Below are positions 13,995 through 25,325 of a DNA stretch of 64,000 nucleotides, piece by piece. Both the position numbers and the translations under genes were made by a program. Source of the stretch: an uncultured cyanobacterium. GTDB taxonomy: Bacteria > Cyanobacteriota > Cyanobacteriia > Leptolyngbyales > Leptolyngbyaceae. The notes under the pieces were generated by a model. The model was given only the letters and a program-made list of their open reading frames with translations, was not told the DNA's origin and searched no databases. The stretch is taken from NCBI GenBank assembly GCA_963766075.1, contig CAVYAN010000072.1, forward strand, positions 96,001 to 160,000, in the 5' to 3' direction. The stretch's first letter is position 1. Each line of letters starts with the position of its first letter.

Positions 13995-16621
13995 TTATGG
14001 CGTGGTCAATACTTCCGACGACAGGCGCTTGAATTCCAGGCGTTCGGTATCTCCCACGTCTACAAAAATGGTATCACCGTCAGCAAAGTCGCCCCGCAGA
14101 ATGGATTTGGCGATCGCCGTTTCCAACTCCCGCTGGATTGCCCGCTTCAGCGGACGGGCCCCGTAGACAGGATCGTAGCCCACATCGGCGAGAAAATCGA
14201 GGGAGGCATCGGAGAGCTTCAGGGACATCTTGCGATCGCTTAACCGACGGCTCAACCGAGCCACCTGCAGTTGCACGATCTTGCGCAATTCAGACTTTTG
14301 CAAGCTGTGGAAAATGATCGTGTCATCAATCCGGTTAAGGAATTCCGGACGGAAATTGCTACGCATCGCTTCCATCACCCGACTGCGCATCTCAGCATAG
14401 CGATTCTCATCTCCGGCCACATCGAGGATGTACTGTGAGCCAATATTACTGGTCATGATGATCACACAGTTTTTGAAGTCCACCGTGTGGCCCTGGGCAT
14501 CAGTGACCCGCCCATCATCCAGAATTTGCAGCATGATGTTGAACACATCGGGATGCGCTTTCTCAATTTCATCAAACAGGATGACGGCGTAGGGACGGCG
14601 GCGAATGGCTTCGGTAAGTTGTCCCCCTTCGTCATAACCCACATAACCAGGAGGCGCACCGATCAATCGAGCTACTGAGTGCTTTTCCATGTATTCCGAC
14701 ATGTCAATCCGCACCATGGCTTCGTCGGTATCGAACATATAGGTGGCCAGGGCTTTGGCCAGCTCCGTTTTGCCCACGCCCGTGGGTCCCAGAAAGATGA
14801 AGCTAGCAATAGGCCGATTGGGATCAGCGAGGCCCGCCCGCGATCGCTCGAATGGCATCTGCTACTGCCGTGACGGCTTCTTCCTGTCCCACCACCCGCT
14901 GGTGCAATTCTTCCTCTAGGTGCAACAGTTTTTCCATTTCTGAGGCCACCAATTTGCTAATCGGAATCCCCGTCCACTTGGAAATAATTTCGGCAACGTC
15001 AGACTCCGTGACTTCCTCTCGCAGCAGGGATTTGCCGCTGGTTTGAGTCTCGGCCAGTTTGGCTTCGGCTTCTTGCAGCTTGCGGTTGAGTTCGGTCATC
15101 TTGCCGTATTTCAACTCAGCGGCCCGATTCAGGTCATAATCCCGTTCTGCTTGGGCCACTTCAGTGTTGACACGATCAATTTCTTCCTTCAAGGTCTGGA
15201 TGTCATTAATGATGCCTTTTTCAGATTGCCATTGGGCATTAAACGTGGATTGCTCCTGTTTCAGATCAGCAAGCTCTCGTTCCAATTTTTCCAGGCGATC
15301 GCGGGAGGCGCGATCGCTTTCCTTCTGCAAAGACAGCCGCTCCATTTCCAATTGCAGAATTTTGCGATCGACCTCATCCAAATGTTCAGGTTTGGAGGTG
15401 ATTTCCATTTTCAATTTAGCGGCAGCTTCGTCCACCAAATCGATGGCTTTGTCGGGGAGAAAGCGATCGCGTAATGTAGCGCGTGGATAATGTAGCCGCA
15501 GCGACCAAGGCATTATCAGCAATCTTCACCCCATGATGCACTTCATAGCGCTCCTTCAGGCCCCGCAAAATTGAAATCGTATCTTCGACGCTAGGCTGAT
15601 CAACATACACCTGTTGGAAGCGCCGTTCCAACGCTGCATCCTTTTCCAAATATTTGCGATATTCATCCAGGGTTGTGGCACCCACACAGCGCAGTTCCCC
15701 TCGAGCCAACAGCGGCTTCAGCAGATTACCCGCATCCATGGCCCCTTGGCTGGCCCCGGCCCCCACCACAGTATGAATTTCGTCAATAAATAGAATAATG
15801 TGTCCCCGGGAATCCATGACTTCCTTCAGCACGGCCTTGAGGCGTTCTTCAAATTCCCCCCGATACTTGGCTCCGGCAATCAAGGCTCCCATATCTAAGG
15901 CGATCAGCTTCCGATCCTGCAAGGATTGGGGCACATCGCCATTGATGATGCGCTGGGCCAGTCCTTCGGCGATCGCAGTTTTACCTACACCAGGCTCCCC
16001 AATCAGCACGGGATTATTCTTCGTGCGGCGCGACAGGATTTGGATCGTGCGGCGAATTTCGTCATCTCGCCCAATCACCGGGTCCAATTTGCCCTGGCGG
16101 GCGGCTTCTGTCAGGTCGCGCCCATATTTTTCCAATGCCTCATATTTGCCTTCCGGGTTCTGGTCCGTCACTTTCTGGCTACCTCGAATTTGCGTGATTG
16201 CTTGTTTGAGTTTTTCGGGATCGAGTTTCAGTTCGGCAAATAGCCCTTTACCAAAGCGGGCATCCTCGCCGTAGGACAACAGCACATGCTCTACAGAAAT
16301 GAAATCATCGCCATACTGTTTTTTCACGGCATCGGCCCGGTCCAACAGTGTGTCCAAGCTGCGGCCCATGTAGACAGATCCCGCACTGTTCCCAGACACC
16401 TTCGGTTGGCGCTGAATAAAGCTGTCCGTATAGTCGCGCACGCGCTGCACACTCACGTCGAGCTTACTGAAAACGCTGTTGGTGATGCCTTCCTGCTCAA
16501 CCAACGCCTTCATTAGATGTTCCGTTTCAATCTGCTGTTGCTGGGCCTGCTTAACAATCTCCATGGTGCGGACGATCGCTTCCCAGGCTTTTTCAGTCAT
16601 TTGGGATTGGTTCGGTTGCAT
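13995..16621 (-). CDS. clpB: ATP-dependent chaperone ClpB (two apparent 1-bp frameshifts near 15470 and 14850)
   Basis: Two AAA+ modules ([16 protein letters not shown]), a coiled-coil M domain and [11 protein letters not shown], split over three ORFs. Confidence 0.95.
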
Positions 16622-16748: not shown

Positions 16749-17201
16749 TCAAGAGACCCGAGACACCAGAAAAGAGGCCACATAGCTGGGCGCACTGCTC
16801 GGCTGATGCGCCACCGGATAGGGCAGCAAATTCACCAACTTTACCCGGTGGCCCACCAGCGGCTTGCTGACAGCGGTGGACTGATTCGGCCCCTGGGTCA
16901 GTTCGAGGGTGCCTAGGGACTTACCATTCTGCATCACCTTCACGACCACCGTCGCCTGTCCAGCCCACAAACAAGCAGTGCCCTGGGGACAGCGCGAATC
17001 CTCTTTGACCTTGAGAAATTGTACGATTAGCCCCCGCTGCTTCACCACAGCTTTTTCACCCAGCTTGAGCTGAAAGGGCTGATCGGGATTCACCACGCGG
17101 ATACTGGTGTGGACCGGGGGCCGAAAAATGGGAGTAGCCATGACGGGCCCGCCCCCAAGGATCACGGTGAGGGCGATCGCCCACAGTAAGGAATAACGCA
17201 T
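16749..17201 (-). CDS. Hypothetical secreted protein with EDSRCPxxxxC motif
   Basis: Signal-like MRYSLLWAIALTVILG; VKEDSRCPQGTACLWAGQA. Confidence 0.7.
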   Translation of the reverse strand: MRYSLLWAIALTVILGGGPVMATPIFRPPVHTSIRVVNPDQPFQLKLGEKAVVKQRGLIVQFLKVKEDSRCPQGTACLWAGQATVVVKVMQNGKSLGTLELTQGPNQSTAVSKPLVGHRVKLVNLLPYPVAHQPSSAPSYVASFLVSRVS

Positions 17202-17221
17202 GGTAGAAAAGGGAAAAAGGA

Positions 17222-17531
17222 TTAGGTGCGCGCTGTAAAGGCCAGATCGCGCAATTTGGTTAGAAGTGGCTGCAACGGTGCTGGCGCGGTAATGTCGTTC
17301 AGAGATCGCGTGACTTGGCGATCGCCGTCCTGTATCGCCAATGTGTAGGAAATGATGTCGGGAATGGCGATCGGAGCGGGGAAATCCGCATCCGATCGCT
17401 CTCGAGATTCCCGACGTCGCCACTAGCAGAGAAAGTTCCTCGGCCAGATCTGGAGATAAATGAGCTGTATCTGCCTCATAGCTGAGTTGCAGATTGGCGT
17501 ACCCACCGGAACAGGTGAAATAGATGTGCAT
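17222..17531 (-). CDS. Emfourin-like (protealysin inhibitor) protein, frameshift near 17400
   Basis: N-terminal IYFTCSGGYANL. An alternate frame gives PDIISYTLAIQDGDRQVTRSLNDITAPAPLQPLL, stop at 17222-17224. It lies directly downstream of an M4 protease. Confidence 0.8.
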
Positions 17532-17600: not shown

Positions 17601-18652
17601 TCAGGGGGCACTCGGCAATCCCACCGCTCGAAAAGCGGCTCTGATCTTTTGGGGAGAGCCTACGGGCACTTTGCCATCCCGAGTCAGGCTGCGAGCCGAG
17701 TCTACAATCACTTGCACCGCATCGTTGAATTTGGCTGTGGCCCATAGCTTTTGCAGAGCGGTGTACCATACCAGTCCAGCCTTATCGGTGCCAATTTCCA
17801 TTGCGCTAAGGTAAAATGCCTTGTTCAAGATGCCGCTGTTAATATGGACGCCCTGATTATCCTCTGGGCCTTTGAAGTAGTCCTTCATGTGGGCCGGTTG
17901 CGGATCTTTGCCCAGGAGTTTGTTGTCGTAGGCGGTGCCAGGTTCTTTCATGGAGCGCAGCGCCTCTCCGTACAGATCCGGTCCCATGATTTCATCGCCA
18001 ATCAGCCAGTCGGCATCGTGGGCGGTTTGGCCGGCGGCGTACTGGGTGATGACGGTACCAAATACATCGGACATGTGCTCGTTGAGGGCTCCGGATTGGC
18101 TCTTATATTCTAGTTTGGCGGTATATTGGGTGACGCCGTGGGTTAATTCGTGGGCGATGACGTCCAGCGATCGCGAAAAGCTGATAAAGATTTTGCCATC
18201 TCCATCGCCAAAGGTCATCTCGTCGCCATCCCAAAAGGCATTCAGATAATTGACCCCGTAGTGCACATTCAGAATCAGATCCAAGCCTAAATTGTCCACG
18301 GAGTTGCGATCCAGGACATTTTTAAATAGTCCCGCACCACACCAGCATAGTCGTAGACTTGGTTGACGGTATCGTCAGGCGTGGCGGGTTGCCCCTCGGT
18401 GCGGACGGAAAGGACGCGCTGTTTCCAGGTGCGCTGGGAGTCGAATACTTGGCGATTGGCGGTACCTACGGCGGCGGCGGTCCCGGCAAAGGTTTCAATG
18501 CCGACGACACTCTGGGCCCGTTGGATGCGAAATTGGCTGCTTTGTTGAAAGCTGACACGGGCGTTTTCAATGCCGTTGCGGGCCAAGTTTTCGGCAGCAT
18601 AGGGTGGAATGAACTGGCAGCAGCATTTTGTGCTGGGGCAAATATGAACCAT
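17601..18652 (-). CDS. Protealysin-like M4 metallopeptidase, frameshift near 18320
   Basis: Short propeptide with CQFIPPY; NAFW, HELTH, GALNEHMSD and GVHINSG motifs; no signal peptide. Confidence 0.9.
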
Positions 18653-18912
18653 ATAGCCTCGTTTTGGGGTGTATCCCGGTGGGGACTGACAAACTCCAGA
18701 GTCTCGGGGGCGTGCCCCTGATTTCACCGGGTTGAACGTTTCTATTATGGAAGGCATGAACGGATTTTCACGGAAGCCTTAATGATGCTTATCGCTATTC
18801 CGCAACTTCGGCCTGGTACGGCAATGTGCCAGAGTCGAGGCGGATCCCCAGAGGACGGTAGTTCAGAAGGGGTTCACAACCTAGAGCGTTTATTAAGCTG
18901 TGTGCGCAGAGA

Positions 18913-18941
18913 TTGAATTGATTGCATATCCCCCTTACACT
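18913..18941 (+). promoter_or_regulatory. Putative sigma70-type promoter
   Basis: TTGAAT (18913-18918), a 17-bp spacer, then TACACT (18936-18941); predicted TSS near 18948. Confidence 0.55.
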
Positions 18942-18947
18942 ACGGGT

Positions 18948-19240
18948 ATGGTTGTAAGACACGTCCAAATCCTAATTGTAGTTATCGTGTCGTTGACAAT
19001 ACCGAGCTACAGGCTTGCAAATACGGTTGATTAACAGTTGATTAACGCCTTTGCTGATCTTCTCAGGATCGTTTAAACGCAGTGGCGATTAAGCAAAGTT
19101 CTTTCCGAGCCCCATTGGGTCTGCATCTGCGGTTGTGTTGGTTTTGAGTGTGGCCGATTCGATTGGTCCGCACTACCAAGACTTATGCGTCCAGAATGCC
19201 TCGATTCAGCGGAGGTTCGCGATCGACTCGCGCATCCAGT
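18948..19240 (+). ncRNA. Candidate structured RNA / long 5' leader
   Basis: Four successive imperfect stems: 18952-18963/18986-18999, 19049-19059/19087-19098, 19140-19158/19162-19183 and 19185-19189/19231-19235. No convincing ORF. Confidence 0.5.
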
Positions 19241-19270
19241 TTGTTTTATTGTTTCAAGAGAGAACCCACC

Positions 19271-19495
19271 ATGATGTCTATCGAAGCATTGCCCCCCTCA
19301 AGCAAAGTTGGCTCCTATCGGGATCAACTGCTGCGCTGGTGTGTGCTCAGGGTTCTACCCAGTGGCGAAACCCAGGAAGTTATCCGTTTTCGTCGCCATA
19401 GCGATGCGGAAGCCCGCGTTCAGATTTTGCGCCGCACTCATCCGGAGTGGAATTACACTATGGGTTTTGATGCCCCATCGGCGGAGCAAGTCTAG
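19271..19495 (+). CDS. Small hypothetical protein (74 aa)
   Basis: Purine-rich gagagaa upstream. YRDQL..WCVLRVLP..RFRRHSDAEA..ILRR resembles a recurrent cyanobacterial hypothetical family (from recollection, not searched). Confidence 0.7.
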   Translation: MMSIEALPPSSKVGSYRDQLLRWCVLRVLPSGETQEVIRFRRHSDAEARVQILRRTHPEWNYTMGFDAPSAEQV

Positions 19496-19680
19496 CCCCC
19501 AACGGCAGGAGCGAACAGGCAGTAGGTTAATACTCTGCCGAGAGGGAATCGTCCACGCCCTCTCGGCAGAGCTATTGCCGTTGGCGAAATTCTCTCCATT
19601 GGCATCCATCTAGCGCGAAATCAACTAGTCTAGGAAGTGCAAAAGATGCGGTCAGCATCGCTGTGATGGGTTACGGGCAG

Positions 19681-19975
19681 TTAGTGTTGCCTGCTGTCTT
19701 GACAAAATTTTCGATCGGCGGGGTCAGCGTTGGGGTTGGTGAGCAGGTAGTCGTGCAGCCAACTACAACTGCGATTCACCAATGTTGCCAAACTCAAACT
19801 GTCCAATGTCCACAGCACGACATGGCGATCGTCACTAGCCGTGGCCAAGGTTTTGCCATCCGGGTTGAATTCAAGTCGTAGACGCTGGTGGTATATCCTG
19901 TCAGGGTGGCTTTGAGGGTGCCGTCTAGATTCCAGAGTTTGACGGTGCGATCGCCCCTAGCCGAGCTAAAACTTG
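19681..19975 (-). pseudogene. C-terminal remnant of a WD40-repeat protein
   Basis: GDRTVKLWNLDGTLKATLTG, then in another frame FNPDGKTLATASDDRHVVLW..RSCSWLHDYLLTNPN, stop 19681-19683. Confidence 0.8.
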
Positions 19976-20070
19976 ACCGCAAGTTCTCCAGATTGAGTCT
20001 ACTCATTCTCTAAAGGCATCCAATTCTTAACCCATGCCCGTGCCAGGAGCTTTACCCGTAGAGCCTCTGG

Positions 20071-23430: not shown

Positions 23431-23764
23431 AGCAAGAAGTGATGCTAAACAAATCAGACCCCTTATTTTACTCGGTTAACTCTGTTCAGCACTCACAGAA
23501 ATGCCAGTTTTACCGGGAAGCCTCACCGTTGCACCGCCAAAACCCTTACCGATCGCAACATCAAGAACCCCGACCTCAAGAACTCTGGTGCCCCCAGTCA
23601 AGACCCCTGGCACCCCCACCGGGCTTCCCACCGGACAACAGCAAGCCCCACTCAAAACTTTCTCCAGGGCGCGTTGGGGCGGGGCACTTCCGGATACACT
23701 AAAAATTGGTATTTTTGTTTAAGTATCTATTAAGTCTTGTTCGTTGCGCTCTTCTCCAGAACTT

Positions 23765-25325
23765 ATGCCGAATTCCGCTCCGCCATCGTCAGAAGTGACT
23801 CCCAATTCTGGTCTGCCCCTGACTACAGCCTTGACAGAGTCTCTAGATGTCATCGTGATTGGGTCTGGGATTGGCGGACTGGTGACGGCTACCCAGTTGG
23901 CGGCGAAGGGAGCCAAGGTACTGGTGTTAGAGAGCTACCTGATTCCGGGGGGCAGTTCTGGCTATTTTGAACGCAGTGGTTATCGCTTTGATGTCGGGGC
24001 ATCAATGATTTTTGGGTTTGGTACCCAGGGGACAACAAATTTGCTGACTCGGGCGCTGGAGGCCGTGCAGGTGAGCCTGGAAACCATTCCCGATCCGGTG
24101 CAGATTCACTACCATTTGCCCAATGGTCTGGAACTTAAGGTTCATAAGGATTACGAGAAATTTTTATCCGAACTGACCGCCAAGTTTCCCCATGAAGCCC
24201 AAGGGATTCGCCAGTTTTACGATGAATGCTGGCGGGTGTTCAACTGTCTGAATGTGATGGATTTGTTGTCCCTGGAGGAGCCGCGCTACCTGGCTCGGGT
24301 GTTTTTTCAGCATCCGTTGGCTTGCCTGGGTTTGGTGAAGTATTTGCCCCAGAATGCCGGGGATATTGCCCGCCGATTCATTCGGGATCCGGACTTGCTG
24401 CGGTTTATTGATATGGAGTGCTATTGCTGGTCGGTGGTGCCTGCCGATCGCACCCCGATGATTAATGCGGGCATGGTGTTTAGCGATCGCCACTACGGCG
24501 GCATCAACTATCCCAAAGGCGGCGTCGGGCAAATTGCTCAGAAATTAGTGGAAGGTTTGGTCCAGTGCGGCGGCAGCATTCGCTACAAGGCCAGAGTGAC
24601 CGAAATTCTGCGGGAACGGGGACGGGCGATCGGGGTGAAATTGGCCTCAGGGGAAACCTATCGCGCGAAGCGGATCGTCTCCAACGCCACCCGCTGGGAC
24701 ACCTTTGAAAAATTGATCCCCGCTACAGAAATGCCGATCGCCGAACAAAAATGGCAGCGGCGCTATCAAAAGTCTCCCAGCTTTTTGAGTCTGCATTTGG
24801 GCGTCAAAGCCACTGCCCTGCCCTCTGGCACGGAATGCCACCATATTCTGCTGGAGGACTGGACCCGCATGGAAGCCGAAGCGGGACTATATTTGTTTCC
24901 ATCCCCACGCTGTTGGATCCCAGTCTGGCTCCCCCAGATCACCACATCATCCATGCGTTTACGCCGTCCTGGTTGGAATCGTGGCAGGGACTGTCTCCCC
25001 AGGACTATCAGGAGAAAAAAGAAGAGGCAGCAGCGGCTTTAATCACGCGCCTCAAAAAATCTTTCCAGATCTATCCCGCCATCTGGACTATCAAGAAGTG
25101 GGTACACCGCGCACCCATCGCCGGTTTTTGGGGCGGCAAGATGGGACCTATGGCCCGATCCCCACCCGCAAATTGCCGGGATTGTTGGGGATGCCGTTTA
25201 ACCGCACGGCGATCGCGGGCTTCTACCGCGTAGGCGACAGCACATTTCCGGGGCAGGGATTAAACGCCGTTGCTTTTTCGGGATTTGCCTGTGCCCATCG
25301 GATTGCGGTGGATCTGGGCCTATAG
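23765..25325 (+). CDS. crtH: Carotenoid isomerase (two apparent frameshifts near 24885 and 25058)
   Basis: GSGIGG FAD motif, [25 protein letters not shown] and the C-terminal [17 protein letters not shown]. Confidence 0.9.

Follow-up and report, generated by a model that had tools for sequence, protein, structure and literature searches.

The window analysed here (the whole 64,000 nt stretch of DNA from an uncultured cyanobacterium) carries a small ORF of 74 aa on its + strand (19271-19495), set among accessory genes as an earlier reading of the sequence alone had claimed. Gene content, Atlas protein clusters and matches on plasmids likewise point to a cyanobacterial host. Upstream, on the - strand, an M4 peptidase gene split over two frames precedes emfourin (17601..18652); this neighbour was recognised by Pfam and is not part of the unit. 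Downstream lies a convergent C-terminal fragment of a WD40 protein, also in two frames (19681..20006, - strand; weak Pfam match, E 0.01). The emfourin and WD40 matches fall below the Pfam cut-offs, and a contig from a related strain has one extra base inside the WD40 fragment. The genes at 13995-16621, 17601-18652, 16749-17531 and 23744-25325 are all split across frames; they comprise a ClpB-like chaperone, the M4 peptidase, emfourin and a carotenoid-isomerase-like gene (names partly assigned by eye), and frame splits of this kind suggest indel errors in the assembly. Linkage of the small gene to the M4 operon was rejected, as it is present in none of 19 other M4 loci (flanks of ~1.5 kb, with one locus extended to 6 kb). 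Past the stop codon, a perfect 14-bp inverted repeat forms a hairpin (19533..19571, + strand; z -7.6), which has no U-tract, was not called by a terminator scan, and is likely to represent the 3′ end or a bidirectional terminator. It is one of two strong hairpins, the other at 18799-18845, that the sequence-only reading had missed.

By sequence comparison the 74-aa ORF is real, and its product belongs, as a divergent member, to a multicopy family of cyanobacterial small proteins that is widespread yet uncatalogued. It matches proteins of other genomes at E values down to 1.5e-13 and displays the family pattern of invariant and near-invariant alignment columns (Y..L..W....LP....R.R...DAE....L....P.......FD). 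A longer ORF of 115 aa was rejected; the upstream in-frame extension is taken to be non-coding because a 95%-identical protein, P0190, departs from it before the conserved part. The protein had been described as basic and Arg-rich, and the Arg cluster is indeed present, but with 9 R and 1 K against 9 D/E (net charge +1) it is barely basic, its pI of 7.98 comparing with a family median of 9.5. There is no membrane helix (maximal 19-residue Kyte-Doolittle value 0.57; globular alpha/beta model). A paralogue count and a structure prediction, both proposed with the earlier reading, gave three paralogues in the same genome and a fold of a short helix followed by beta-beta-alpha-beta (pLDDT 75), and a second model made without an alignment shows the identical topology (pLDDT 60). 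The invariant Arg residues of the family are located at the strand-helix junction. Fold searches of the PDB with the model produced nothing clear (best Z 4.3), so that ClpS and other matches at Z ≤ 4.3 were rejected; PDB sequence matches at E 0.2-0.3 were discarded as weak, and no solved relative of the family was found by that search. In a viral structure library searched with Foldseek, about 50 small uncharacterised phage proteins resemble the model at TM ~0.6, none at E ≤ 0.001. A DUF2188 protein ranks third there (E 7e-3, TM 0.65, rmsd 3.1 over 67 columns), but none of the 44 aligned family members matches the Pfam DUF2188 profile and identity is 19%; the likeness is one of a shared common small fold only. 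Judged from its predicted structure, the protein is most likely a small nucleic-acid- or protein-binding regulator kept at a low level.

The family is found in 90/90 genomes of the same taxonomic family and in 110/401 genomes of the class at E ≤ 1e-9, with at most about 10 matches per genome, while several sampled taxonomic families are without it at that threshold. It comprises 131 clusters at 50% identity. Nine of 72,556 plasmid records, all of them cyanobacterial, contain a match; no relatives were found among GenBank phages or in IMG/VR. The 44 aligned members have no credible match in Pfam, NCBIfam, PHROG or PADLOC (best E 0.005), and a literature search, mostly without subscription journals, found no description of the protein family or the leader. 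A parallel by description is Norf1, which is reported as a widely conserved, cyanobacteria-specific microprotein missing from picocyanobacteria (PMC5126843, accessible text). Compared by description alone, Norf1 and the present family are both cyanobacterial small proteins with gaps in their distribution; the accessible text on Norf1 (PMC5126843) makes no mention of paralogues or copies, unlike the multicopy family described here, and the two may yet be the same family. Each genome carries one core-type copy together with accessory copies, and in a quick tree of 58 columns the core-type clade is spread over many genera of the taxonomic family. The 74-aa protein groups with P0190 (95% identity) and P0062 (55-59%) in a long-branch subfamily (branch 1.66), which joins one accessory class loosely (SH-aLRT 83). 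P0190 and P0062 are known here from their protein sequences alone, and the DNA of this subfamily was not found in metagenome contigs, genome contigs or 400 genomes of the class, in searches that may leave out very near records.

Upstream of the ORF, the sequence-only reading had proposed a promoter, a direct repeat and a leader of four successive stems. The promoter-like sequence TTGAAT-N17-TACACT exists as stated (18913..18941, + strand; TTGAAT at 18913-18918 and TACACT at 18936-18941) and would place a TSS near 18948, but it does not exceed chance. It is an 8-of-12 match, below the threshold of the scan tool; sites of this quality occur 1.9 times per kb per strand in intergenic DNA of the genome, a density that predicts about 1.2 on each strand of the 620-nt gap, where the + strand has two. 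A TTGACA at ~18994 has no matching -10.

The direct repeat GTTGATTAAC (19026-19035 and 19037-19046, 11-bp period) is likewise present as written but not special: it is a generic tandem repeat, and the genome collection contains 15 exact copies whose contexts are unrelated, many lying inside ORFs. It may still be a DNA-level regulator site, since the genome has similar repeats of 11-bp period elsewhere in its intergenic DNA. GATTAAC repeats with the same period are found in triple form at 182471-182496 of contig C72 and in double form at 71884-71898 of contig C12 (both in genome G000 and intergenic), and these could possibly be sites for one response regulator. The cyanobacterial Pho box (SphR site) consists of three 11-bp-spaced repeats with a TTAA core before phosphate genes. 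GTTGATTAAC differs from that consensus in having two repeats only, and the similar intergenic sites in the genome have no obvious phosphate genes downstream (translations judged by eye).

Folding of the 331-nt region gave z -2.46 on the + strand and +0.85 on the - strand; z ≤ -2.46 was reached by 22/127 random intergenic segments of this length (127 of 914 eligible segments with 10 shuffles each, a noisy control). The complementarities of the four stems are all present, and stem 3 alone exceeds chance (z -4.7). Stem 1 (18953..18998, + strand; z -1.78, equalled by 14/200 shuffles), stem 2 (19049..19098, + strand; z -1.34, 19/200 shuffles) and stem 4 (z +0.7) are at chance level, and the inner helix of stem 4 is consumed within a larger rod described below. 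The earlier statement that no named RNA family is recognisable here was borne out: Rfam gave no match in the window at the gathering score, and a further scan returned a single chance match (E 1.9) outside the leader.

The upstream hairpin at 18799..18845 (+ strand) contains G·U pairs and gives z -5.3 on the + strand and -1.4 on the - strand; the fold enclosing it (18772-18903, + strand) gives z -2.9. A TATTAT -10-like site at 18743-18748 overlaps the -10 of the M4 gene on the opposite strand, and the hairpin may be part of a longer leader that begins there. No homologue of the structured region 18772-18903 was found; 28-nt matches to the hairpin were rejected, as they lie inside WD40 coding sequence.

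According to the fold models, the main structured element of the leader is a rod at 19107..19218 (+ strand; 46 pairs, 11 of them G·U), of which stem 3 (19140-19183) is the tip, and the long untranslated leader probably folds into this one RNA rod. Pair probabilities along it are mostly >0.9, and its z score is -4.2 on the + strand (equalled by 1/200 shuffles) against -0.4 on the - strand. Well-placed windows over the rod, whose boundaries were picked post hoc, rank among the 2.6-4.4% of intergenic windows with the lowest composition-corrected energy, and 1.8% of windows match their strand asymmetry of ~20 kcal/mol (10,972 intergenic 130-nt window-strands on contigs up to C72 of 126). The rod stands out among intergenic windows, but moderately, being notable and not extreme. 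Between the rod and the start codon there is a small GCGA/UCGC hairpin (19219..19231, + strand; probability ~0.8 in two folds and 0.4 in a third) over a degenerate HIP1-like octamer, and a purine-rich SD-like sequence, AAGAGAGAAC (19256..19265, + strand), ending 5 nt before the ATG. An anti-SD arm, GUUCUUUC (19098..19105, + strand), is predicted to pair with the SD-like GAGAGAAC at 19258-19265, with a probability of 0.96 in the fold of 18945-19275 versus 0.29 in that of 19090-19300; how likely 19258-19265 is to be unpaired also varies with the segment chosen for folding, from 0.0-0.3 to as much as 1.0.

The related-strain contig, a single contig of depth 2.7, spans 19151-19476 with nine differences, six of them listed; individual differences may be errors because of this depth. 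Five of the listed changes are in the leader and one, which is synonymous, in the ORF. None of the five breaks a pair: four fall at positions that the reference fold leaves unpaired, and the fifth turns G19109·U19216 into G-C. With the strain differences the MFE drops to -64.0 kcal/mol, compared with -57.6 for the reference, in part through the closing of an A·C mismatch, and random sets of four transitions and one transversion did equally well in 35/1500 trials (p ~0.02). Beyond this strain contig the rod has no comparative support, and none of the changes there is two-sided.

Searches for homologues of the leader itself were negative. By blastn, no true homologue was found in 60 relatives or 89 genomes of the taxonomic family (a single 43-nt match was rejected as a generic direct repeat), and none was found on plasmids. 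A one-sequence covariance model found no homologue of the rod in its own genome, the 89 family genomes or 32 loci, and none was found at 26 homologue loci. Patterns for the rod tip gave no matches in IMG/VR, and eight matches in metagenomes were rejected as unrelated by context and without the protein. No homologous leader was found, and hence no covariation for this RNA. Conservation of the upstream region among homologues, whose absence the sequence-only reading had named among the outcomes that would refute it, was thus not found among the homologues that could be reached.

The 116 homologue loci examined for their context were the best-ranked matches and are not a random sample. A divergent XRE/Cro-C1 gene is present at 36/116, frequently accompanied by a palindromic promoter spacer and a leader hairpin that covaries; at 13/116 the small gene follows a co-oriented HTH-like gene; 48/116 show the core-type promoter and its inverted repeat, and 19/116 were left unassigned. 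The window copy has no divergent XRE/Cro-C1 gene within ~400 nt, and an XRE remnant near or upstream of it was rejected, as tblastn with 15 XRE proteins gave no match below E 0.1. Judged by their sequences, the small-protein family uses several unrelated leaders.

The leader of accessory class 1 is a single hairpin with a loop of the GCCUGGAAAAC/GUCUGGACAAC type, often closed by GCGATCGC arms, and located downstream of a promoter of the TTGACA-17-TTTAAT type whose spacer is palindromic, with an XRE gene running divergently (L011:1319-1373(-), L022, L026, L027, L034, L059, L086, L093, L117, L174 and L178). The alignment contains 21 cells with two-sided changes compared to 8.5 in shuffles; it holds 17 sequences, five of them poorly registered and from neighbouring classes, with the helix set by eye, and RNAalifold found no consensus in it. 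A model of this hairpin picked up two further loci, from a single genome; each precedes a family gene and lies opposite an XRE gene. Among the 12 top matches examined, the three with the loop inside the hairpin all precede the family and none of the other nine non-training matches does (0/9). The off-family matches are mostly HIP1-armed hairpins without the loop, and one is a loop without the stem. The class 1 hairpin is a candidate for a new RNA motif.

Class 2 leaders are about 240 nt long and form three hairpins (L009:1665-1903(-), L019, L031, L042, L107 and L112; also L010, L106 and L110). Two-sided changes occur in 11/40 pairs and in 0/500 shuffles, for an alignment of six related sequences and a shuffle control that ignores relatedness, and the model built from them matches L010, L110 and L106 at E ≤ 1e-12. 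In front of the core-type copies the promoter is conserved: two CGCTATCTATAGT-like sites lie around the -10 in inverted orientation, and in many cases CCATTAGCCA directly precedes the start. This promoter is seen at L003 (G000:C105, ~75100-75230) and 47 other loci, by a pattern hand-built from the same sequences, and the inverted pair looks like the operator of a regulator. Rfam gave no match over the leaders of 20 homologue loci; a Whalefall-1 match in L076 was rejected, as it did not reach the gathering score and lay on the opposite strand, downstream of the gene.

Class 2 is the class loosely nearest to the window protein in the tree (SH-aLRT 83). Models for the GCCUGGAAAAC-loop hairpin (R3) and the three-hairpin leader (R2) gave no match over the window leader with filters off. 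The sensitivity of R2 is low, the sister leaders L113 and L114 being found at E 0.009 and 1.6 and those of L102 and L105 not at all. As R2 barely detects some sister leaders, distant homology of the window leader to the three-hairpin leaders is possible. Sister-class leaders also end in a hairpin closed by GCG/CGC, but a layout aligned by hand (TTGACA ~275 nt upstream and a final GCGA/UCGC hairpin) was rejected, as the profile had no match. On these comparisons the window leader is a singleton, matching no other leader class of the family.

The window element is a structured leader on a small accessory gene of an uncatalogued family. The rod is predicted on the sense strand only, and a strong hairpin follows the stop codon. 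Of the possibilities raised by the sequence-only reading, the cis-regulatory leader fits best, on the one rod at 19107-19218 and not on the four stems from which it was originally drawn. The reading preferred here, at an even chance, is a lineage-specific cis-acting leader on a monocistronic accessory gene, with a rod that closes the ribosome site and stabilises the mRNA. Transcription would start ~320 nt upstream of the ORF, or ~515 nt if from the TATTAT site, and end at 19571. The rod would bring GUUCUUUC beside the SD-like GAGAGAAC, and the ribosome site would be closed by default because of this juxtaposition; the rod would also stabilise the mRNA. Translation would proceed only once the short basal helix opens, through heating, co-transcriptional folding, binding or processing, so that the rod, as modelled, may damp translation of the small gene. 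The product would be a beta-beta-alpha-beta domain of phage type, in which a conserved Arg patch precedes the helix, and in homologues other covarying leader hairpins and a divergent XRE repressor would do the equivalent job. RNA thermometers and the SD-sequestering leaders of type I toxin mRNAs are translational-control leaders of this cis-acting kind; the window leader is like them in its length, its G·U-rich irregular helix and the predicted SD/anti-SD pairing ahead of a small gene, and has no Rfam match.

A simpler explanation, somewhat unlikely, is that an ordinary small gene lies beside neutral, decayed intergenic DNA between two promoters, and that the rod is a product of chance or the remains of an old inverted duplication. 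The 22/127 random 331-nt segments that fold equally well are consistent with this, as are the ~3% of 130-nt windows that match the corrected energy of the rod, the chance level of three of the four stems and the failure to find conservation of the leader. Strand asymmetry of ~20 kcal/mol in just 1.8% of windows argues against it, together with strain differences that favour the rod (p ~0.02) and the covarying structured leaders in two other classes of the family.

An autoregulatory pair, in which the protein binds its own leader hairpin through the Arg patch and represses translation, with leaders co-evolved in each subfamily, is improbable. The invariant Arg residues at the strand-helix junction would suit such binding, the window protein combines a long branch (1.66) with a unique leader, and a loop-conserved covarying hairpin stands before accessory copies, all three loop-in-hairpin model matches preceding the family. 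No RNA motif, however, is common to the classes or to the window leader, the net charge of the window protein is +1, and fold searches with its model did not turn up any known RNA-binding protein (best Z 4.3). The related proposal of an ncRNA with a cognate binding protein is not supported for this copy, as no homologue of the leader was found at the tested homologues or in 89 related genomes and the family has several unrelated leaders.

A toxin-antitoxin-like unit, with the rod silencing a toxic small protein and an antisense RNA or XRE partner as the antidote, is highly improbable. Long leaders with a masked SD are typical of type I toxin mRNAs, and the window leader is long, with an SD predicted to be masked at a probability of 0.96 or 0.29 according to the stretch folded; homologues are multicopy, on plasmids and beside XRE genes, and the fold is common to small phage proteins. 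The accessible text of PMC12390103 describes RBS sequestration in type I toxin mRNAs, for example tisB and bsrG. The window protein is soluble and not a membrane peptide, failing the membrane-helix test (maximum 0.57), although cytosolic type I toxins are named as exceptions, SymE and RalR, in the same text (PMC12390103). No antisense partner was found, there being no minus-strand promoter match over 19200-19900, and there is no PADLOC or Pfam toxin match. The XRE genes of the homologues are divergent and not co-transcribed, and the core-type clade extends across many genera of the taxonomic family, both of which argue against such a unit. Least probable, and scarcely credible, is an independent trans-acting sRNA (~18948-19240, or the processed rod alone) the ORF then being carried by another transcript or by read-through. 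In its favour, the rod folds on its own and a U-rich stretch at 19240-19255 after it could end a short transcript, but no canonical terminator was called, the sole promoter between rod and ORF is an 8-of-12 site at 19223 with its -10 ~20 nt before the ATG, and neither conservation nor paralogues of the rod were found.

The cis-acting leader thus remains the preferred reading for the window copy, and the earlier suggestion of a small mobile module agrees better with its relatives: many homologues are compatible with it (36/116 with divergent XRE, and the nine plasmid records), but this copy has no XRE remnant. Phage immunity regions include the lambda cI/cro layout and the c4-type leaders of P1 and P4. 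The likeness to the cI/cro-type layout consists of the divergent XRE/Cro-C1 genes in 36/116 homologue loci, the hairpin leaders and the phage-like fold; it differs in that the small protein is not an HTH protein and has no PHROG match, and that the window copy is without XRE. Rfam families of the C4 type did not match the leaders of the homologue loci. A bolder and rather unlikely proposal is an undescribed, probably phage-derived regulatory system common in cyanobacteria, in which each member would bind a subfamily-specific leader hairpin, usually under a divergent XRE repressor, and one copy per genome would have become a core gene; the window copy would lack the XRE gene and use a new 112-nt G·U rod as its switch. 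If each member does bind its own leader hairpin, the covarying leader hairpins would be new RNA motifs, and leader binding or control of mobile elements by the protein, if real, would amount to a new regulatory layer in cyanobacteria. The protein family is a more useful outcome than the singleton element of the window: it occurs in every one of the 90 family genomes yet has no Pfam, NCBIfam, PHROG or PADLOC model, and brings with it a conserved inverted repeat that resembles an operator, as well as two leader structures that covary and match nothing in Rfam.

Several further loci were observed along the way. In a third arrangement (L001:3940-5006(-), L002 and L039), a 126-aa gene, an HTH-like gene and the small protein gene are co-oriented; it adjoins a probable integrase gene in L001 (by eye from the translation) and is also found near mobB on a Brasilonema plasmid. 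A short ORF at G000:C48:69369-69464 has a weak look-alike of the core motif (E 1.6) and may be a more remote member of the family. Another plasmid copy, in Anabaena (L040), is situated inside a CRISPR locus.
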